In this document: positions 9,851 through 62,188 of the stretch, piece after piece
How positions within the stretch are numbered: position 1 is the first letter of the stretch
Layout: each line of letters starts with the position of its first letter
DNA from: an uncultured Candidatus Binatia bacterium
GTDB lineage: Bacteria; Desulfobacterota; Binatia; Bin18
Assembly: GCA_965214605.1 (NCBI GenBank)
Contig: OZ243961.1
Location: forward strand, 704,001-768,000
DNA: 64,000 bases
Reading direction: 5' to 3'
The notes under the pieces: model-generated
Database searches by the model: none
What the model was told of the DNA's origin: nothing
What the model saw: the letters and a program-made list of their open reading frames with translations, nothing else
Position numbers and translations under genes: made by a program

Positions 9851-10204
9851 CTACGACCGGGCGAAAATCTGCACGATGTTGCCAGCGGGATCGGTCGCGG
9901 TGAAATACCGGCCGTGACCACCCATATCGACGATATCGTTCACCTGGACACCGTTTTGGGTCAGCTTCTCCCACATTTCTCCTAGATCATCGACCTCTAA
10001 CACTACGGTGCCCCCACCACCCGGCGGAACCGTTCCTTCGCTCGGGTCGGCGAGCGCAACGGCCACACCGTTCACATCGAACTGGGTCCATCGGTCGCCA
10101 TCCCGAAATTTGATAGCCAGCCCCAGGACGTCCTGGTAGAAGCCCACCGCCTTGTCCATATCCTTGACCACGTAATACGCGCTGGAAAATTTCTTGACTG
10201 CCAT
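9851..10204 (-). CDS. VOC/glyoxalase family protein
   Basis: VKDMDKAVGFYQDVLGL, VVLEVDDL, DPAGNIVQI; RBS GGAGG. Confidence 0.9.
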   Translation of the reverse strand: MAVKKFSSAYYVVKDMDKAVGFYQDVLGLAIKFRDGDRWTQFDVNGVAVALADPSEGTVPPGGGGTVVLEVDDLGEMWEKLTQNGVQVNDIVDMGGHGRYFTATDPAGNIVQIFARS

Positions 10205-10328
10205 ATGCGCCGCCCTCCTCTACAGTTCGATATCGTCGCTGCCCAGCTATCAATTTTTTGTCGGCAGCGCAAACCAAGACAGAGCCAGTAGCCTCCCACC
10301 CTATTTTGGATTACAATCCGCGCCGCCT

Positions 10329-11192
10329 ATGCCGGAATTGCCCGAAGTTGAAACCATCGCCCGTAAACTGCGCCGAGGCCAGGCGCTCGAACCGGGCTTC
10401 CCGCCCTACCCGACTCCGCTAGGCCGCACCATCACAGCCGTGTGGCTGGACTGGCCACGGGCCGTTCGTCCCTCCGCAGACACGCTCATCCAAACCTTGC
10501 CGGGCCATCGCCTTGACTCAATCGGACGGCGTGGCAAATACCTGATCTTTGGCCTAAGGTCTATCTCCTCTCCCTCTTCACGCTATCTGCTCATCCATCT
10601 GAAAATGAGCGGCCGCCTCCATGTCCTAGAAGCAGACTTGCCGCGCGAAAAGCACGTACACTTTGCCTGCACCCTGGATAATGGTTACGAGCTGCGCTTC
10701 AACGACACGCGCAAATTTGGTCGGGTGTATCTGGTTGATGACTTTGACGAAGTCACCGGCCATCTCGGCCCTGAGCCGCTGGAAGAGACATTCACGCTGA
10801 ACGTCTTGCGGGCGCTGCTGACAAAGAAATCCGGCGGCCTTAAAGCCTTGCTCCTCAACCAATCGTTTATCGCCGGTATCGGCAACATTTATGCCGACGA
10901 GGCCCTGTGGCGGGCAAAGATTCACCCGCTGCGCCGGGCGAACAGTCTGCAAGCCGCAGAGATCGCCGCACTGCGCCGGGCAATTCGGGCCGCGCTCAGA
11001 GACGGCCTCAAACACGGTGGAGCGGCTATTGATTGGGTCTACCCAGAGGGCAAATATCAAGACCATTTCCGGGTCTATAAACAGGCCGATAAGCCGTGTC
11101 GTCGCTGCAAAACCAAGATCGAACGGATCCTCGTCGGCCAGCGCAGTACCCACTTTTGTCCTACCTGCCAAGTTGCAATCGGCGAACATTGA
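10329..11192 (+). CDS. mutM: Formamidopyrimidine-DNA glycosylase (Fpg/MutM)
   Basis: MPELPEVET start, [29 protein letters not shown]-terminal zinc finger CRRC...CPTCQ. Confidence 0.95.
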
Positions 11193-53109: not shown

Positions 53110-53200
53110 GAGCGGCGGCGGTCTAATCTCAGAGTCTGGGTTCAGCGAACACCTCTAATGCCCGCCAAGCCCCCATTATCTTCTGTTTCTCCTTGAGACC

Positions 53201-56200
53201 TCACCATGTAAGGCGTGGCTTGTCGAGACGCTGCAGTACATCGAGTTTGGTAATGGGGTGTTGTCGAAGGCGTTTCAAAATCCAGGCGTGCTCATAGAGC
53301 TGAACTCCGTGGACTTTTGCGGCCCCTGCTCCCGGTTTGCCAATCTTCCTCGCATTGGTAAAGACGGCAAGTGTGGCAAAATCCTTGGCGAGATGATTGG
53401 CGTAGAATTTCCGAGACGCGTAAATCTCGCGGACAGAGGAGTCGTCCTGTAAAACCTCATGCTTTGTGTATTTGCACTGGGCAAGCTGATTTCCATGGGG
53501 AGAGATCAGCACGATATCGCACCCCTTATCATTGCCCGTAGGAGTAAGATGCACCTCTCCGTCAAACTCTCGGTAAAGAAGTTCCGCCACGAGCGCTTCA
53601 AACTGCTCCCACCCAAGCAGGTCCAGCTCCTTTTCTGAGAGAGGAGGAGCCGGCTGGACTGTTGACTGTCCAAAGACGTCGGTCTGCTGAAACGATTCAT
53701 GGGTCACAATTTCCGGCGCCACTATCGCGTCTTTGAGGTCGACCTTCTTTGTCAGAAGCCGATGAAGATGCAGGTCAAAGGAATCGTGCTCGGGATGGTG
53801 CAAAACCGGAATAAAAACACTCACATCTCTGTCCTGACCGATGCGATAAACCCGGTCGGTGGCCTGCTCCTCTTTGGCGGGATTCCAGTGGCGCTCGAGA
53901 TGAATAACGTTATTGGCTCCCGTAATTGTGAGACCTACCCCGGCTGCCACCGGCGAGATGATCAGTATTCCAAAGCCGTCACACGACTCAAATTGCTCAA
54001 TCAAGCCCCGGCGCGTCAACACGGACTGTCGTTTACCAACCGCCTTCGTATCGCCGTTGAGCACCTCCACGGGTATGGCGTAAATTTTCCCGAGCACATG
54101 CCTCAGGAAGACCTGAAGCCGCCTGTTGATGACAAAAATCAGGACTTTCTCTCGGCGCTCTCTAATTTTGTCCAACACGTTTAATACAACCGACAACTTC
54201 CCGGACTTCCCAGCTTCGGTCCGACACTCTTGAATCGTGGCCGGCGATGGCAGCTCTCCTCCCCCCAGGAGATCTGGATGTAGAGACACATCGCGCAGGC
54301 GCTGCAATCCCCTCAAGAGGTGCTCTAGTCCCGTCCCCTCAGCTATTCCCTGACGGGTGGCCTCGACGACCGTATTGTAGGTAGTGAGCTGTAGACCGGA
54401 CATGGTCCGGGCCAGATGAGGGGAATATTCCTGATTTTTGGTAGTGTCTCCGACACCAACGTACACCCTTTTTTTAGGTAATCCTTCCAAGTAGCCTTCT
54501 TTAGTCCGTCTGAGCATGAGCGCCCCAACGCGTGTCCGGAGCTGTTGACCAACCTCTTGTCGGATCTGCGGCAGAGCTTTACCGGCTCTCAACAACGGGC
54601 GTACGTATGTCTTCCGAAAATCCTGATAACTATCGAGCAAGCCGGGAACAGCCGTGTCGAAAATACACCAGAAATCTCTGAGTTGGTTCTCAACCGGCGT
54701 CCCCGTTACCATGAGTTTGAACTGTGCCTTTATGCCCTTGGCTGCTCGCGTCTGCATGGCGTTGGGATTTTTGATGTTTTGAGCTTCATCAAAAATGACA
54801 AATGACCAATCCACCTGGCACAGTGAGAACTGGTAGTTGGTCAGGGTGCTGTAATTGGTGATGACCAATCGCCTCGGGCTATCTAGGCGGTCGAGTCCGA
54901 ACTCTTCACCCACTTTTAGAGAGAGCAGTGCCCGTTGATTCGTCTCACCGTTCTCAAGAACAGCGTCATCCTCCCGCTCTCGGGCTTCGACGCCGCGACC
55001 TGGGAGGCGATAACGCTTAAGGTCGGCACCACCGTGCAGCGTAACCATATTGACAAAGGGCGAGGCGGCAAAGGTCTGCTCGACCTCTGCTTTCCAGTTA
55101 TCGAGAAGAGACAACGGGGCGACCACTAAAACAGGCTTTTGCACGACCCCGCGTACGGCGCACAGGCGGTAGTACTCCCCAAGGGCGACCAAAGCCGTAA
55201 AGGTCTTGCCCAGTCCCATGTCGTCGGCCAATAGACTCCCGAACAGGGATTCTTCATCAGAATGTTCAAGCGCCTGCTGTGAGAGGCCGACCAACCATCG
55301 GATCCCTCTCTGTTGATAGGGAAATGGCGACCGCTTGTAATCCTCCCACGCGAGTTCGCCCTGATAAAGATGTTTGTCAATCGTTGAGTCTATGTAGCGG
55401 GATTTTATATCAAGACGCTCGTCATTGGGGTGAACGTCGACAACGATCTTTGCCCGACTGCTCTCATCTTCTTCAGCCTCGGCCTGGCTCGGTTTTTTCG
55501 GAGAAACCTCGATGGCGCCCTGAGCCCGAAGTTCTCGTTCGAGTCCGTCGAGAGTACGCTCAACTACGTCCCGATTGGCAATCGAGATCGTCTGTTCCTT
55601 GAACGAAATCTCGTTGCCCCCGGCCTGAACGGCATCTTGCAGTCGTTCCCGAAATTCGGCAAGATCCGTCAAATCCTGGATCGCGCTGCCAAGACTCTCC
55701 ACCCCCAGAGGAGATCCAGACGTCTCAGCGCTTCCTCGATCCAACCAATCAATCCCCGATGCTTCCGTCTCACCGAAGTAGGCGTGTCTGAACTCTGCGG
55801 CGCCGCGCACTCGCGCGGAATAGCCGACATCCAGATCAACGAGGGTGACATCAAGGAACGCCGTTGGGGAGGCGAGGAATTGTTTGATATATTTCGCTGG
55901 TATGGAGCGGTTTTTAATAATTTCCTGAGTCGCCTTCAGGCGTTTCTCGTCGAGCAGGATAATTGTATCGCCAACCCGCAGGCTCTGGACCGTATCGTTA
56001 TCCGGGGCTATCTGACCTAGACGATTGGCAACCTGCTCGGCTGAAACGAGCCCCTCAAAATTCGGAGTGAGTTCAAGATCACCGTTTGCAAGCCGCTCAA
56101 GCGAAACCGACACTCGCTGCGGTTCTACCGTCTTGAGGTCGGTAAACTGACGCAAGTCGATGTCACAGCCGGCTTCAGCGGCTTTCTGGACATGCTGGAC

Positions 56201-56734
56201 GGCGAGCAGATTGCGGTATTCAGACCGCGCCCCATCCACCAGCGCCTGATGGTCGGCAACTGCCTTCAAAGCCAACCATTGGTCTGGGGATGGAAGATAG
56301 TGCTCGGTTTCGCTGAGGCGCAGAAAAGGACCTTCGAGGCGGTATGAAGCCGCCGTATCCCCGCTCGCCGTCCGCAGGCGCAGGCGGAGCCTAAAAGAGG
56401 GCTGGAAGCTGCTCCCCTGCGTCCTGAGTTCCAAGCTGCCAGGCCAGCTGTCGGGGAGTCCAAACAGCAAACGTAGGTCCGATTCCAGGTTGACCACGGT
56501 TTCGGGTTCCAACGCAAAGCCATTCGCAAACCGCTCGGCAAGTCCCTGCTCTTCGAGCACTTTAAAATGGGCATATTGCGTCAGTGATAGCTCACCACCC
56601 TTTCCGGACTCGCAATCGGCAAAGGCCTTCTGTGGCAGATAAAAGCTGACATCTTCTTTTTCTGCCCTGTACGAGAAACCCTCATCCTGGGAGTTTCTCT
56701 GCCACAGTGCCGCTATTCGTTCTCTGACGGACAT
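53201..56734 (-). CDS. zorD: Zorya type I ZorD: SNF2-family helicase with a C-terminal Mrr-like nuclease
   Basis: LADDMGLGKT, DEAQNIKN, TGTPVEN, RHWNPAKEEQATDRVYRIGQ; Mrr-like FEALVAEL...DKGCD...QCK; last gene of the zorABC operon. Confidence 0.9.
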   Translation of the reverse strand: MSVRERIAALWQRNSQDEGFSYRAEKEDVSFYLPQKAFADCESGKGGELSLTQYAHFKVLEEQGLAERFANGFALEPETVVNLESDLRLLFGLPDSWPGSLELRTQGSSFQPSFRLRLRLRTASGDTAASYRLEGPFLRLSETEHYLPSPDQWLALKAVADHQALVDGARSEYRNLLAVQHVQKAAEAGCDIDLRQFTDLKTVEPQRVSVSLERLANGDLELTPNFEGLVSAEQVANRLGQIAPDNDTVQSLRVGDTIILLDEKRLKATQEIIKNRSIPAKYIKQFLASPTAFLDVTLVDLDVGYSARVRGAAEFRHAYFGETEASGIDWLDRGSAETSGSPLGVESLGSAIQDLTDLAEFRERLQDAVQAGGNEISFKEQTISIANRDVVERTLDGLERELRAQGAIEVSPKKPSQAEAEEDESSRAKIVVDVHPNDERLDIKSRYIDSTIDKHLYQGELAWEDYKRSPFPYQQRGIRWLVGLSQQALEHSDEESLFGSLLADDMGLGKTFTALVALGEYYRLCAVRGVVQKPVLVVAPLSLLDNWKAEVEQTFAASPFVNMVTLHGGADLKRYRLPGRGVEAREREDDAVLENGETNQRALLSLKVGEEFGLDRLDSPRRLVITNYSTLTNYQFSLCQVDWSFVIFDEAQNIKNPNAMQTRAAKGIKAQFKLMVTGTPVENQLRDFWCIFDTAVPGLLDSYQDFRKTYVRPLLRAGKALPQIRQEVGQQLRTRVGALMLRRTKEGYLEGLPKKRVYVGVGDTTKNQEYSPHLARTMSGLQLTTYNTVVEATRQGIAEGTGLEHLLRGLQRLRDVSLHPDLLGGGELPSPATIQECRTEAGKSGKLSVVLNVLDKIRERREKVLIFVINRRLQVFLRHVLGKIYAIPVEVLNGDTKAVGKRQSVLTRRGLIEQFESCDGFGILIISPVAAGVGLTITGANNVIHLERHWNPAKEEQATDRVYRIGQDRDVSVFIPVLHHPEHDSFDLHLHRLLTKKVDLKDAIVAPEIVTHESFQQTDVFGQSTVQPAPPLSEKELDLLGWEQFEALVAELLYREFDGEVHLTPTGNDKGCDIVLISPHGNQLAQCKYTKHEVLQDDSSVREIYASRKFYANHLAKDFATLAVFTNARKIGKPGAGAAKVHGVQLYEHAWILKRLRQHPITKLDVLQRLDKPRLTW

Positions 56735-56785
56735 GTTCGGCTTGCTCCGGCATTATCCGCGCAGGCCCTCTGTGCAGAGCTCAGC

Positions 56786-58282
56786 TTAGACGACACCGTG
56801 TCGGCGTCTGTATTCCCGGTAGTCCTTAGAGCTCAACACGTCCGAGGGATCAATAGACGTTCCTAATTCCTGCAATGTCTTTATAGCCTTATACTGCCAC
56901 CTAGCAGGCTGATGCGTGATCTCGACAACCCCGGTGTGTCCAAATTGAGACACATAATCTTCATACAGTCCTTTTCCTAAGTCGCGGTGGGGAATATTAT
57001 CGCGTTCATAATTCTCAATAGGATTACCCCGAGGAAGTCGTCCGTATATCCGCAAGGAGAAACTGTGCGTTCCCTCAACAACATACTTTCCGTCGATGTT
57101 GAGATAGATGACCGAGAGAGAGGAGTGCCGCACTCGAGAATAAGCAGGGATATCCTTGTTCCGATAATGACGCCGGACGTAATCTTGAGCCCGCCTGCCG
57201 AGAAACAGCCGCGCGTCTTTGACTAGCCGCTTCTCAAAAACTCCTTTGAGAAAGCGCTTACGCGATGGAAACATCCGTTTCAGATCAGGATCGGAACTCT
57301 GCTCCACATGGTCTTCAAGGACTTTGAGAAACAGCTCGATATCCATTCCCGAGAGCCACTGACGGACCTGCTTGACATATTTATCGCCTAGTATGGCCCA
57401 CCAGTGTCTGTAATTGACCGCCCCCTTACTCACCCGCGGATCGCCGGCAATGGATAAGATCACCCGGAGCCAGTTCTCCGGCATATCCTGGCGGCGGGCA
57501 GCCCGATCAACCATGACTTGAACCACCTTGTGCCCCAGCAACCAGTCGCTTTCATAGGCGCTTTCATAGATGTCTTTCCGCACCAGTTCACGTAGAACCT
57601 CGTGGTCTTGGCCAACCTGGAGTTCTTTCAGAGGAGCCAAATAGTAGATGTTCTTACACTTGGTGAAGAAGCGGCCGCCGCTTTCCATAGGAAGTCCAAG
57701 ACGAGACGCAATTGTTTCCAAGGGAAGGGCGTCCTTCCGGGCCTGCTCAACAACCCATGCCGGGCCATCGATGGAAAAGAGAGTCTCGGCGTGTTGGGCA
57801 AAGAGAGCGAGCGTTTGTGAGAACTTTCTGTCGGCGTTCAGCCGAAACTGTTCTCGGAGAAATTCGGCAAATGACCAAGTATCCCCAAGCTCATCAAAAC
57901 GGGCAAAAAAGAGCTGGGTGCAGGCAAACAGCACAAGCGGCGAGTATCTTTGACGTAACGCCCTCAAATGCTTAAGTGTGGCAGGGTCGATCGGGTTGCG
58001 CTTAACGCACTCTTCACACTCCTGCCATAATTCCACCAGCGGACGGACATCTTTGGGTGTCCGCACGACGTTTTGGATGCGCCGCCTCCGGTGCAACAAG
58101 CCGTGAATATGTTTCTTACGCTTCCTAAAGGCCTCGGAGTTGGTCCCGGCCGTGTGGGCAAGCCGTTCAAGTTTGCCGGACAGGGCTTGATAGTGTACCA
58201 CGTCCGCCCTACCGGTCTGCTTGGGCAGAGTAAAGTCCAGTCTGGCGAGGCTCAATCGGGGGAGCTTAATTGTCAAAGACAT
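56786..58282 (-). CDS. zorC: Zorya type I ZorC (EH-signature protein)
   Basis: IAGDPR...WW, DIELFL, RMFPSRKRFL, VVEGTHSF (ExxH); start overlaps the zorB end. Confidence 0.85.
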   Translation of the reverse strand: MSLTIKLPRLSLARLDFTLPKQTGRADVVHYQALSGKLERLAHTAGTNSEAFRKRKKHIHGLLHRRRRIQNVVRTPKDVRPLVELWQECEECVKRNPIDPATLKHLRALRQRYSPLVLFACTQLFFARFDELGDTWSFAEFLREQFRLNADRKFSQTLALFAQHAETLFSIDGPAWVVEQARKDALPLETIASRLGLPMESGGRFFTKCKNIYYLAPLKELQVGQDHEVLRELVRKDIYESAYESDWLLGHKVVQVMVDRAARRQDMPENWLRVILSIAGDPRVSKGAVNYRHWWAILGDKYVKQVRQWLSGMDIELFLKVLEDHVEQSSDPDLKRMFPSRKRFLKGVFEKRLVKDARLFLGRRAQDYVRRHYRNKDIPAYSRVRHSSLSVIYLNIDGKYVVEGTHSFSLRIYGRLPRGNPIENYERDNIPHRDLGKGLYEDYVSQFGHTGVVEITHQPARWQYKAIKTLQELGTSIDPSDVLSSKDYREYRRRHGVV

Positions 58283-59012
58283 CCAATATCCCTTGGTATT
58301 CTTCAATGACGGGTTGTCTCACCGTAAAGCGCAGGTCGATACGCCGATTTTTGCGCCGCTTTTCATCCGTGTCGTCAGGTTCTTGCAGGCGGCGCGTCGC
58401 AGCATAGCCGCTGACCGAGAAAAGAGGCTTCCCTTGGAAATTCAGGAGAGTGGCAAGACCGTTGGAAGCTGCGCGTTCCTCGGTCCAGAAACGCCACACC
58501 TGTATCGCCCGGTTTGCGGATAATCCCCAGTTCCCGAGTTCAAGGGTCCGAGCAGGTCTGCTGTCGGTATGGCCCTCCACAAAAATCGTATCAAGAAATT
58601 TGTGGCGGCCATCCTTGAGTCTCCGCCGTAGAGCGCTGTTAAGCGTGTTGCCAATCGTATACACCGCGTCCTGTCTATCCGGGGGAATCTGATAGCTGCG
58701 AGTCTCAAAAAAGAGGTATTCATCAGGAATCCGCAGTACGGTCTTGTTATCGCTCACCTCAACCAGTATGCCATGCTCCTCCAGCTGCTTCTTGATCTCG
58801 TCAAGGAGGTCGGCGCGGTTCTTATTCGCCTCACTCAATTCTTGAATCGCCTGCTCAACGTCAAGCCGTCTTTTCTGAAGCTGAATAATAAACACCACCG
58901 ACGCCAAAATGAAAATCACCAACAGACCGGCCATGATATCGGAAAACGAAATCCAATAAGGATTCTCTTCGTCAACGTGCCGCCTGACATCGCTGGAGAC
59001 GCGCTGAAACAT
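58266..59012 (-). CDS. zorB: Zorya ZorB (MotB/OmpA-like)
   Basis: PYWISFSDIMAGLL (TM Asp), EGHTD, NWGLSANRA, NRRIDLRF. Confidence 0.92.
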   Translation of the reverse strand: MFQRVSSDVRRHVDEENPYWISFSDIMAGLLVIFILASVVFIIQLQKRRLDVEQAIQELSEANKNRADLLDEIKKQLEEHGILVEVSDNKTVLRIPDEYLFFETRSYQIPPDRQDAVYTIGNTLNSALRRRLKDGRHKFLDTIFVEGHTDSRPARTLELGNWGLSANRAIQVWRFWTEERAASNGLATLLNFQGKPLFSVSGYAATRRLQEPDDTDEKRRKNRRIDLRFTVRQPVIEEYQGILDVFDN

Positions 59013-59017
59013 AGACC

Positions 59018-62000
59018 TTATCTCCTTCTCTCAATCTTGCCGTCCATCTCTTCGACAGTGCTGGCAAGAGAGACAACTGCCGCCTGCATAGCGTTTGTAT
59101 AATTCTGGGTTTGCTTGGTCCACTCGTTCAGACGGTCTTGGGTCTGTGTCTGCACTTGGCTCGCGTAGTCCCTCAGAAGCTGAGCGACCTGCTTTTGCAA
59201 CTGGTCAACATGCTCCTCGAGAGCCGCAAACAACTGCTGCTGATGCTGAGTGAGCTGAGTCGTCTGCCGGCGCGAGGCGTCTGCCGCTTCCGCGATTCTA
59301 TCAGCCGCGCTGGAGAGCATGTCCTTAAGACCGGTAATGACGCCAATCACCTGATTGATATTGCGACCCGTCGTCTCATTCTCCCTGGCAAGCCGCCGGG
59401 TTTGCTCCAACACTTGACCTAGGGCCCGGCCGAGCTGATCAACCCCCGACTGAAGCCGTTCAGACAGAGTTCGTAGTCCGCCGGAAGCGTTGTTCAGCAA
59501 CTCGCCGCCCGTCCGTATTGCCGAGGCAGATGTTTGAAGTCCTTCTGTAACCGCTGCGATCTGCTCATACAATCTCTGACTCTGTTCAAGAACCGTTTGC
59601 GAGGCCTGAATATGGCCATCAAACGAGGCGGCCCAGGCAGTCTCTCTGGCGTCCATACGCTGGTTCAGCGCCTCTAGAGCATCCATAAAGTGCGTCATTG
59701 AGCCGCCCCACTGACTAATGGCCGTCTTCACCTCCGCCGTTGTCGCCTCCATCATCTTCCGCTGTTGTTCGCCTTGACCTCTCAGGCCGTCGCCGAATTG
59801 TCCGACTGCTGTTTCCATCGTACTTGAATACTGTTCGGCCTGCTTAGTCCATTCACGCAGATGGGTTTGGGTCTGGGTCTGCGCCTGATCCACGTAATCC
59901 GCCACAAGCTGAGCGGCCTGCTGTTGCGACTGCTCAACATAGCGCGAGAAGGCGTCCTGCGAGGCCTGAATATGGCTGTCAAACGAGGCGGCCCGGGCAG
60001 TCTCTCTGGTGTCCATACGCTGGTTCAGCGCCTCTAGAGCATCCATAAAGTGCGTCATTGAGCCGCCCCACTGACTAATGGCCGTCTTCACCTCCGCCGT
60101 TGTCGCCTCCATCATCTTCCGCTGCTGTTCGCCTTGACCTCTCAGGCCATCGCCGAATTGTCCGACCGCTGTTTCCATCGTACTTGAATACTGTTCGGCC
60201 TGCTTAGTCCACTCACGCAGATGGGTTTGGGTCTGGGTCTGCGCCTGATCCACGTAATCCGCCACAAGCTGAGCGGCCTGCTGTTGCGACTGCTCAACAT
60301 GGCGCGTGAGGGTGTCCTGCGAGGCCTGAATATGGCCATCAAACGAGGCGGCCCGGGCAGTCTCTCTGGTGTCCATACGCTGGTTCAGCGCCTCTAGAGC
60401 ATCCATAAAGTGCGTCATTGAGCCGCCCCACTGACTAATGGCCGTCTTCACCTCCGCCGTTGTCGCCTCCATCATCTTCCGCTGCTGTTCGCCTTGACCT
60501 CTCAGGCCATCGCCGAATTGTCCGACCGCTGTTTCCATCGTACTTGAATACTGTTCGGCCTGCTTAGTCCACTCACGCAGATGGGTTTGGGTCTGGGTCT
60601 GCGCCTGATCCACGTAATCCGCCACAAGCTGAGCGGCCTGCTGTTGCGACTGCTCAACATGGCGCGTGAGGGTGTCCTGCGAGGCCTGAATATGGCTGTC
60701 AAACGAGGCGGCCCAGGCAGTCTCTCTGGCGTCCATACGCTGGTTCAGCGCCTCTAGAGCATCCATAAAGTGCGTCATTGAGCCGCCCCACTGACTAATG
60801 GCCGTCTTCACCTCCGCCGTTGTCGCCTCCATCATCTTCCGCTGTTGTTCGCCTTGACCTCTCAGGCCGTCGCCGAATTGTCCGACTGCTGTTTCCATCG
60901 TACTTGAATACTGTTCGGCCTGCTTAGTCCACTCACGCAGATGGGCTTGGGTCTGGGTCTGCGCCTGATCCACGTAATCCGCCACAAGCTGAGCGGCCTG
61001 TTGTTGCAACTGCTCAACATGGCGCGTGAGGGTGTCCTGCGAGGCCTGAATATGGCTGTCAAACGAGGCGGCCCGAGCGTTCTCTCTGGTGTCCATACGC
61101 TGGTTCAGCGCCTCTAGAGCGTCCATAAAGTGCGTCATTGAACCGCCCCACTGACTAATGGCCGTCTTCACCTCCGCCGTTGTCGCCTCCATCATCTCCC
61201 GCTGCTGTTCGCCTTGACCTCTCAGGCCGTCGCTGAATTGATGGACGAGATTCTCAAGAGCCTCGGCGCCGCCACGTGCCTGACGCGACGCGAGATCGCC
61301 CGCAGCCTGAGCAAGGGATTCCAGAGCGGGCTGCATGCCCTGCTGAATACCTTCGAAAACAGCGGATTGGACGTTCTGTGTCACCTGGTTGATTGTTTCC
61401 TGCATTTTATTGCCGATGCGTTCGGAAAGGCCGTCCAGAGCAATGGCGGCTTGACGAGTTTCCTCATGAACATGGACCAGCGTTTGTTCCGGACTGAGAC
61501 GCGGAAAGAGTGCGTCTATCTTATTCTGTAAGGTCGTAATCTTGTATCTGACGCGCTGTTCGACGGCTTTTTCGATCAGGTTGAAAACAAAGCTCAGGGC
61601 TACTCCCCAGACCGAGGTCTTAAAAGCGATAGAGGCCCCATCTATCAAACGGGTGATACTGGCCACATCCTCAGGATTGACGTTGGACAAACCCAGGAAC
61701 AGACCGGTGAAAGTCCCGACAACACCAATAGCGGTCAGGAATGCGGGAACAGCAGCGAGAAGGCGATTTTCCGTGATACCTCGCCCCAAAGTGTGCGCAT
61801 TAAAGAAATGGGCGGCATCATAGGTATTCTGGATTCGCTCTTCACCTTTGGACACAACGAAGGTCTCGTCAAACTCCTCCCAGAGCTCACCCAGTCGCTT
61901 GTTGCGCTGCTGCCGGGCCTGCTGCTTCAGATCCTGACGTTTGTCCATCAGACTATCCGGTTTAAGCCCTCGGAGAAGTTTGCGGAAGAACGCTGTCGAC

Positions 62001-62188
62001 CTCCAAGAGCGACCCCAAGCCCAGAACACCCAGAGCAGAAAGCAGCCAAAGAGCAACCATAAGACGTAGATAAAAAGAGAACTTATCCCTTCCGAGGTCA
62101 CATCGCCGCTGAGCAAGCCGCTGAGCAAGGCGAACGGTTCAATTTTTGGTAGGAGATCATAAAAGTCAAAAGTGATTTTATCCTCCAT
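59018..62188 (-). CDS. zorA: Zorya ZorA (MotA-like channel with a very long helical tail)
   Basis: NTYDAAHFFN, VPAFLTAIGVVGTFTGL, GASIAFKTSVWGV, then about 830 aa of Q/E/A-rich helical tail; RBS GGAGG. Confidence 0.92.
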   Translation of the reverse strand: MEDKITFDFYDLLPKIEPFALLSGLLSGDVTSEGISSLFIYVLWLLFGCFLLWVFWAWGRSWRSTAFFRKLLRGLKPDSLMDKRQDLKQQARQQRNKRLGELWEEFDETFVVSKGEERIQNTYDAAHFFNAHTLGRGITENRLLAAVPAFLTAIGVVGTFTGLFLGLSNVNPEDVASITRLIDGASIAFKTSVWGVALSFVFNLIEKAVEQRVRYKITTLQNKIDALFPRLSPEQTLVHVHEETRQAAIALDGLSERIGNKMQETINQVTQNVQSAVFEGIQQGMQPALESLAQAAGDLASRQARGGAEALENLVHQFSDGLRGQGEQQREMMEATTAEVKTAISQWGGSMTHFMDALEALNQRMDTRENARAASFDSHIQASQDTLTRHVEQLQQQAAQLVADYVDQAQTQTQAHLREWTKQAEQYSSTMETAVGQFGDGLRGQGEQQRKMMEATTAEVKTAISQWGGSMTHFMDALEALNQRMDARETAWAASFDSHIQASQDTLTRHVEQSQQQAAQLVADYVDQAQTQTQTHLREWTKQAEQYSSTMETAVGQFGDGLRGQGEQQRKMMEATTAEVKTAISQWGGSMTHFMDALEALNQRMDTRETARAASFDGHIQASQDTLTRHVEQSQQQAAQLVADYVDQAQTQTQTHLREWTKQAEQYSSTMETAVGQFGDGLRGQGEQQRKMMEATTAEVKTAISQWGGSMTHFMDALEALNQRMDTRETARAASFDSHIQASQDAFSRYVEQSQQQAAQLVADYVDQAQTQTQTHLREWTKQAEQYSSTMETAVGQFGDGLRGQGEQQRKMMEATTAEVKTAISQWGGSMTHFMDALEALNQRMDARETAWAASFDGHIQASQTVLEQSQRLYEQIAAVTEGLQTSASAIRTGGELLNNASGGLRTLSERLQSGVDQLGRALGQVLEQTRRLARENETTGRNINQVIGVITGLKDMLSSAADRIAEAADASRRQTTQLTQHQQQLFAALEEHVDQLQKQVAQLLRDYASQVQTQTQDRLNEWTKQTQNYTNAMQAAVVSLASTVEEMDGKIERRR
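59598..61240 (-). repeat. 360-bp (120-aa) in-frame tandem repeat, about 4.6 copies, within zorA
   Basis: Near-identical blocks recur at 59641, 60001, 60361, 60721 and 61081; protein unit QFGDGLRGQGEQQRKMMEATT...EWTKQAEQYSSTMETAVG. Confidence 0.97.

Follow-up and report, generated by a model that had tools for sequence, protein, structure and literature searches.

Introduction

Type I Zorya is an anti-phage defence system encoded by the zorABCD operon, in which ZorA and ZorB form a motor, and the transfer of a signal by the ZorA tail to ZorC and ZorD is an open step in the Zorya model. The ZorA of Escherichia coli NCTC 9026 (PDB 8QYD) was solved as a 5:2 ZorAB motor with 56 resolved tail residues, and its tail has been described as a pentameric right-handed coiled coil of ~70 nm with a modelled pitch of 328 Å (PMC11946911). 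This tail is needed for defence and for co-localisation of ZorD; the previous tail tests were engineered truncations, all of which failed, and the accessible part of this report, by Hu et al., gives only length distributions for ZorA tails (PMC11946911). In the ZorA of Shewanella sp. ANA-3 (PDB 8VVN), a type I protein, the tail (residues 236-696) is not resolved, so that it offers no structure of the tip (PMC11890865). Here we analyse the ZorA encoded in a 64,000-nucleotide stretch (the window) of contig OZ243961.1, positions 704,001 to 768,000, from an uncultured Candidatus Binatia bacterium (assembly GCA_965214605.1), the tail of which carries a tandem array of 120-residue cassettes.

The Shewanella ANA-3 protein is the best relative of the window ZorA among solved structures (E 4.5e-74), and zorABCD are found in both. 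The alignment of the two proteins covers the head together with the tail-base region termed X below, and the C-terminal 190 residues including the tip module. However, the 696-aa Shewanella ZorA has one tip and no second significant stretch, whereas the window ZorA has five. The E. coli NCTC 9026 ZorA belongs to a different ZorA subfamily, and the available part of its description reports no repeat array (PMC11946911). A first-pass annotation of the window had noticed the tip-like internal copies and proposed that they could act as docking sites along the rod. Beyond that annotation, the main point of the present analysis is that the cassette copy number varies across close relatives; judged from the sequences, the cassette looks like a tail-length module rather than a proven set of docking sites.

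Results

The ZorA tail carries a tandem array of 120-residue cassettes

The zorA open reading frame (ORF; positions 59018-62188 of the window, stop included, on the minus strand like all the features described below) encodes a protein of 1056 aa with a MotA/ExbB-type motor head and a very long alpha-helical tail. The product matches the PADLOC ZorA1 profile PDLC00601 (E 7.1e-203) and belongs to the ZorA_2 subfamily by its score of 477 bits against NCBIfam NF033915 (antiphage_ZorA_2, cut-off 100), its score against the E. coli-type ZorA1 equivalog NF041794 being 41.4 bits (cut-off 750). The Pfam domain MotA_ExbB (PF01618) is recognized at aa 140-220 with 27.7 bits (cut-off 22.9).

A repeat with a period of 360 bp is detected by Tandem Repeats Finder (TRF) at 59598-61240; its 4.6 copies match at 97% and contain no indels. 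Combined with a column-by-column comparison of the DNA at both boundaries, this places the array at 59597-61240 (aa 317-864), which comprises 4.57 units of 360 bp or 120 aa: cassette 1 at 60881-61240 (aa 317-436), cassette 2 at 60521-60880 (aa 437-556), cassette 3 at 60161-60520 (aa 557-676), cassette 4 at 59801-60160 (aa 677-796), and a partial fifth unit at 59597-59800 (aa 797-864), which consists of X only and continues into the distal tail. A full unit is composed of X (67 aa, beginning with F[S/G]DGLRGQGEQQR; aa 318-384 in cassette 1), Y (52 aa, DTLTRHVEQ...METAVG; aa 385-436 in cassette 1) and one linking Q. X is a conserved segment of the tail base, and Y is copied from the conserved C-terminal tip module, of which it reproduces, in diverged form, the first three-quarters (52 residues). 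The Y copies lie at 60881-61036 (Y1), 60521-60676, 60161-60316 and 59801-59956. The array is followed by a unique distal segment, Z (59228-59596, aa 865-987), present as a single copy in all clade members, by the copied part of the true tip module (59072-59227, aa 988-1039), which holds the invariant W1023 and M1034, and by the final 17 residues (59021-59071, aa 1040-1056), which include the conserved V1045 and K1051 and are absent from every internal copy.

All X copies of the window protein are at least 91% identical to one another. Some 20 positions vary among the copies in the array, with about 8 of the differences being synonymous, and the variants form a mosaic, some being shared by units 2 and 5 and others by units 3 and 5. 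This combination of near-identity and mosaic variation is as expected from repeated unequal exchange.

The internal Y segments are copies of the C-terminal tip

The first-pass annotation had aligned 46 residues of the tip (aa 993-1038, 59075-59212) without gaps to aa 390-435 (60884-61021) of the first repeat, with 27 of 46 positions identical, and we obtained the same count. Further internal copies of this 46-mer start at aa 510, 630 and 750, which makes four internal copies and one terminal. Against the non-repeat part of the tail, the tip 46-mer reaches at most 9 of 46 identities without gaps, and 2000 composition-preserving shuffles of the tail gave a mean best match of 10.5 and a maximum of 14. 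The similarity reported at the DNA level is also real, with 108 of 156 nucleotides (69%) identical between the 52-codon stretches and a longest exact run of 10 nt, but it is old. Recent gene conversion from the tip into the internal copies of the window protein was considered and rejected as unsupported, given the short exact run and a synonymous divergence (dS) of 0.86. Conversion had come into question because Y405, Y427 and the string QTQTQ are common to the window internal copies and the tip and differ in the copies of the relatives.

For a profile of the tip, we used 111 distant homologues (overall identity 28-40%), each represented by its C-terminal 70 aa, with the close clade left out. 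The profile matches the C-terminus of 119 of 120 stored homologues, the single protein lacking the match (P0009) being truncated; the motif is thus conserved at the ZorA C-termini of the subfamily. In the window protein, the profile matches the tip at aa 989-1055 (E 1.6e-26) and the four internal Y copies at aa 385-436, 505-556, 625-676 and 748-796 (E 2.3e-15 to 3.5e-12). These internal matches cover profile positions 2-53 of 70 (2-53 up to 2-57 across the clade), and, because positions 54-70 are unmatched, the internal copies lack the last 17 residues of the module. Significant internal matches are found in only nine of the 120 homologues, all from the close clade P0001-P0009, with four in the window protein (P0001), two in a protein of 812 aa and one in each protein of 692 or 694 aa. 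The similarity is not of a generic coiled-coil kind, since significant internal matches are lacking from all 111 distant tails. The claims that the unit is a chimera of a tail-base segment and a copy of the tip, and that ZorA carries the tip motif five times, are accordingly borne out by the segment comparison, the alignment and the profile.

When the tip alone was used as a phmmer query against 1.84 billion representative sequences, 171 proteins were returned at E <= 0.001. Among the 150 proteins listed, nearly all are matched at the very C-terminus, and only P0001 has five matching stretches. Multi-stretch matches outside the clade turned out, on re-scanning, to be weak (E > 0.01) or split alignments, and P0189 (10 stretches) and P0154 are unrelated repeat proteins. 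The re-scan of 261 stored proteins also revealed a chimeric 179-aa fragment ORF, P0179, in which an unrelated N-terminus is joined to the ZorA tip motif, and, in P0184 and P0203, short stretches of this motif that are duplicated immediately next to the tip. The only solved structure matched by the tip is that of the Shewanella ANA-3 ZorA (8VVN), at its C-terminus (last 63 residues, E 3.5e-6), and comparison of the tip with the E. coli ZorA structure gave no match at E <= 10; since the latter is unmatched, conservation of the tip is established for the ZorA_2 subfamily only.

The number of cassettes varies among close relatives

The close relatives of the window protein (P0003-P0008, P0346-P0351 and L001-L003) share its X, Z, tip and end segments, are encoded in the same operon, and are up to 80% identical to it over 505 non-repeat columns, P0004 being the closest. 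They carry 0, 1 or 2 cassettes, as opposed to the four of the window protein, and the flanks of their operons are not shared with the window. All are known from metagenome-assembled genomes (MAGs) or other metagenome sequences, and those with located genomes come from Candidatus Binatia MAGs. The one-cassette form (n=1; 692 or 694 aa) has the order head-X1-Y-X2-Z-tip-end, and in most such proteins X1 and X2 are 67-78% identical. The n=2 form is the 812-aa protein P0002, and the window protein of 1056 aa represents n=4. The cassette-free form (n=0; 572 or 573 aa), with the order head-X-Z-tip-end and without an internal tip match, is seen in P0346-P0351 (six clusters) and in L001 and L003, each encoded on a complete Candidatus Binatia MAG chromosome.

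In a tree of Y copies, all 15 internal copies fall into one clade (support 92/92), within which the four copies of the window protein group together (99/96), as do the two of P0002 (96/88). The single Y clade therefore points to one origin of the cassette, and the separate groups to two independent amplifications. Thus, the tree shows the cassette as having arisen once, in the ancestor of a small clade, and the four copies of the window protein as the product of a recent, lineage-specific amplification. The distances, all estimated from small samples, run from a dS of 0.86 (window) or 1.29 (L002) between Y and tip, through 0.54 between the orthologous heads of the window protein and L002 (non-synonymous divergence, dN, 0.084), to 0.18 between X1 and X5 of the window and 0.06 between two of its internal Y copies. 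That an older rearrangement preceded the recent amplification, as the first-pass annotation had proposed, agrees with the gap between 0.86-1.29 for Y against the tip and 0.06 among internal copies, and with the existence of one-cassette relatives.

A second tree was calculated from the 505 non-repeat columns for 17 clade proteins and three outgroups. On this tree, at least eight changes in copy number (states 0, 1, 2 and 4) are needed among the 17 proteins. Five of the six cassette-free clusters adjoin cassette-bearing forms, namely P0348 with P0345 (100/99), P0349 with P0002 (99/97), P0350 with P0008 (98/93), P0347 with P0009 (100/98) and P0351 with P0006/P0007 (94/93), and the placement of P0346 has no resolution; a smaller tree of 13 rows has the same pattern. 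The heads of P0348 (n=0) and P0345 (n=1) are identical at 310 of 313 positions, and at the 12 sites where X1 and X2 of P0345 differ, the single X of P0348 reads 111222222222, as from a single crossover. The X of P0347 reads 21111111?2222222222222 against P0009 and P0005, and that of P0350, compared with P0008, is 2 throughout. Because the crossover points are not the same, the deletions are independent; they are due to recombination between X1 and X2. These patterns, read from the aligned sequences, show that copy number has changed repeatedly (0, 1, 2, 4) through homologous recombination between X copies. The alternative in which the cassette-free form is ancestral was ruled out by the position of five of the six n=0 forms beside cassette carriers and by the hybrid X segments.

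Conserved tail positions are concentrated in X and the tip

In an alignment of 72 sequences, tail positions conserved in at least 90% of the proteins are G306, A310 and L311, then F318, G321, G326, Q329 and F354 within X, N937 within Z, L1004, L1005, Y1008, V1012, Q1015, T1016, R1019, W1023, T1027, Y1030, M1034 and A1037 in the tip, and V1045 and K1051 in the end segment. Since most of these are in X and the tip, the cassette copies nearly all conserved positions of the tail. The 24 tip positions conserved in at least 70% of sequences lie on one face of a helix (R 0.54 with 3.63 residues per turn, where 0.47 marks the 99.9th percentile of random sets), and the best-conserved residues follow an i+3/i+4 stripe. 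We infer that this stripe is an inward-facing seam of the bundle, and a stripe confined to one face is explained by packing within the bundle no less well than by a docking surface on the outside. In six n=1 orthologues, the mean identity is 0.82 for Y, 0.82 for X1, 0.79 for X2, 0.84 for Z, 0.85 for the head and 0.87 for the tip.

The cassette length fits the hydrophobic periodicity of the tail

Hydrophobic residues recur in the array with a period of 3.64 residues, equal to 120/33, and in a single unit with a period of 3.65; a strong 3.64 periodicity extends over aa 226-1056. Internal repeats were also searched for in stored ZorAs with 60-aa pieces (proteins of at least 480 aa, n=211). The search found internal tail duplications in 55 of the 211 proteins, two of which (P0154 and P0189) are the unrelated repeat proteins mentioned above, and the offsets in the stored homologues (P0010-P0261) include 29, 40, 51, 69, 80, 98, 109, 120, 153, 185 and 214 aa. 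Phase-locking was found for twenty such offsets, at 3.625 residues per turn and with an R of 0.87 that none of 5000 random sets reached. This phase-locking at ~3.63 residues per turn is independent evidence, drawn from sequence, that the structurally unresolved tail may be regarded as one continuous, slightly right-handed bundle, and a periodicity of 3.63-3.64 fits the slightly right-handed coil modelled for the E. coli ZorA.

By this measure, the 120 residues of a cassette would correspond to 33 turns of a hydrophobic seam with ~3.63 residues per turn, and the five helices would remain in register when a cassette is gained or lost; the main effect of such a change should therefore be on the length of the rod. 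Each new joint between Y and X repeats one that was already present in the one-cassette ancestor. With a rise of 0.138 nm per residue (70 nm per 507 residues in the E. coli ZorA) to 0.15 nm (ideal helix), one cassette would add ~17-18 nm, and the tail, which in the window protein counts ~824 residues from ~aa 233, would measure ~114-124 nm for n=4, ~64-70 nm for n=1 and ~47-52 nm for n=0.

An AlphaFold2 (AF2) model of the monomer, of low confidence with a mean predicted local distance difference test score (pLDDT) of 63.6, is helical over aa 328-1055 apart from short breaks. These breaks, predicted with low confidence, fall at every X start (aa 303-327, 441-448, 560-567, 682-687 and 802-807), and one more lies in Z. 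The Gly-rich motif that opens X (61202-61237, aa 318-329), which the subfamily conserves, recurs at aa 438-449, 558-569, 678-689 and 798-809. On the strength of the model, the amplified tail may have five hinge-like points at these X starts. An AF2 irregularity at residues 312-322 of the E. coli ZorA was noted by Hu et al. (PMC11946911).

The zorABCD operon and its surroundings

The window contains a complete type I Zorya operon (53201-62188), with zorA, zorB, zorC and zorD head to tail on one strand; the zorA ORF is intact, in frame and without N, and the other three genes are intact too. ZorB (58266-59012, 248 aa) is OmpA/MotB-like, with matches to PADLOC ZorB1 (E 1.9e-92) and Pfam OmpA. ZorC (56786-58306) is an EH-signature protein of 506 aa when read from a TTG codon, matching PADLOC ZorC1 (E 1.1e-137) and Pfam EH_Signature (E 7.7e-68). 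The TTG start of this longest zorC ORF overlaps the end of zorB by 41 nt (58266-58306), and the ZorC in the protein collection has 498 aa, starting 8 codons further in. ZorD (53201-56734, 1177 aa) scores 1224 bits (E 0) against PADLOC ZorD1 and contains the Pfam domains SNF2-rel_dom, Helicase_C and Mrr_cat, the last being an Mrr-type nuclease.

On one side, the operon is flanked by metabolic genes, encoding an aldo/keto reductase, FUN14, YdjM, an M20 peptidase, a luciferase-like monooxygenase, a beta-eliminating lyase and a phosphotriesterase, and on the other by SMP-30/gluconolactonase and SnoaL. Similarity between the window and L001-L003 is confined to the zorABCD operon (53190-62161) and ends where the operon ends, and the GC content of the operon (0.53-0.585) is slightly lower than that of the upstream region (0.55-0.63). 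The lack of common flanks and the lower GC content suggest that the operon may move as a unit.

Discussion

We consider it likely that the tail of this ZorA_2 protein has been lengthened by amplification of an in-register cassette that serves as a length module, with the internal tips as passengers. The cassette is a "mini-tail", made of the tail base X with its Gly-rich predicted helix break and of an old copy of the tip, Y. After a single origin, its number has varied by recombination between X copies, and the 33-turn unit would keep the five helices in register, so that the length of the rod is altered stepwise. The internal tip copies would most probably be structural passengers, not required as docking sites for effectors.

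The docking proposal of the first-pass annotation holds that the tip contacts ZorC, ZorD or DNA and that each internal copy is a further station, which would make the tail multivalent. Conservation of the tail beyond about residue 355 is indeed highest in the tip, ZorD co-localisation was lost when a large C-terminal ("tail-tip") portion of the E. coli protein was deleted (PMC11946911), and heterologous zorC and zorD failed to complement, which suggests direct contacts (PMC11946911). Furthermore, the internal copies of the window protein retain W, M and both Y residues and score 39-49 bits on the tip profile, above most of the copies in relatives (40-46 bits). However, no direct binding of an effector by the tip is described in the available parts of PMC11946911, PMC11890865 and the 2026 review PMC13434031, the final 17 residues, with V1045 and K1051, are missing from the internal copies, and six clade members of 572/573 aa do without any internal copy. 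The single conserved stripe includes the hydrophobic seam and would face inward in a five-helix bundle, and Y evolves like ordinary tail sequence in the n=1 orthologues. Multivalent docking thus appears quite unlikely to us. A related reading, in which the four-cassette ZorA is a multivalent signalling rod of ~120 nm, favoured by selection because it makes defence stronger or broader, with modular, fast-evolving tails, is unlikely as well; if it held, the cassette number would set both the cytoplasmic reach of the motor and the count of effector-recruiting or hinge stations, and a cassette combining the Gly-rich tail base with the tip stripe would be gained and lost on population time scales.

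It is possible, though in our view doubtful, that the cassette number itself is under selection as a fast-switching trait similar to a contingency locus, which sets the reach of the tail or the count of Gly-rich hinges and so matches cell geometry or evades phage counter-measures. At least eight changes among 17 related proteins, some between alleles nearly identical in the head, the independent amplifications in the window protein and P0002, and the frequency of in-phase internal duplications in the subfamily (55 of 211 stored proteins) speak for such tuning, as does the essential role of an intact tail in E. coli (PMC11946911). Yet neutral recombination between similar X copies predicts frequent change equally, and no anti-Zorya factor that targets the tail was found in the literature searched. 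Finally, the array or the differences in number could be errors of repeat assembly, or the gene could be drifting in a non-functional operon. Every sequence here is metagenome-derived, several relatives are on contigs of 3-5 kb, the crossovers fall in stretches where X1 and X2 are identical and where assemblers may mis-join too, and zorB of L002 is split. Against this, all four genes in the window are intact, the mosaic of ~20 differences among the copies includes ~8 that are synonymous, three n=0 forms, the n=2 form and the window protein are all on contigs of 4.3-6.0 Mb, and ZorA is conserved across orthologues (dN far lower than dS in the head); this explanation is very improbable.

Several points nevertheless weigh against the length-module reading. 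The window Y copies keep 8 of the 12 best-conserved tip positions, including the invariant W and M, which is compatible with retained function. In E. coli, defence was lost with every truncation of the tail, even when the middle was deleted and the tip retained (PMC11946911); it is therefore not obvious that changes in length are tolerated, and some of the n=0 or n=4 systems may be inactive. Some clade operons may be decaying: the zorB of L002, an n=1 form from the chromosome of a Candidatus Binatia MAG, is divided between two overlapping ORFs (9974-10342 and 10339-10830) by a frameshift or a sequencing error, and that operon may be inactive. For the relatives on short contigs, errors of repeat assembly are possible. 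The AF2 tail, with a pLDDT of only 40-70, is too uncertain for fold comparison, and the families behind the 20 phase-locked offsets were de-duplicated by eye, with one offset per family.

No description of internal repeats in ZorA or of cassette copy-number variation was found in the literature searched, supplements aside. If the cassette is a length module, the clade provides a natural in-register length series, in which proteins that otherwise resemble one another have 0, 1, 2 or 4 cassettes and tails of ~50 to 120 nm. Together with the ready-made pair of tip and tip-like segments that the clade also supplies, this series makes the questions of length and docking directly testable.

Length-changing tandem repeats occur in other extended proteins; streptococcal M proteins are size-variable coiled-coil surface proteins of this kind. 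The window ZorA, with near-identical in-frame units (97%), a copy number of 0, 1, 2 or 4 in the clade and hybrid segments, can be placed among variable-number tandem-repeat coiled coils by functional analogy only. In phage tape-measure proteins, the length of an extended helical protein likewise changes by in-frame tandem repeats, via recombination (PMC13585406). Unlike a virion ruler or a surface antigen, however, the window ZorA is the cytoplasmic signalling rod of a defence motor, and its repeat unit, unlike those of tape-measure and M proteins, contains a copy of the protein's own terminus.

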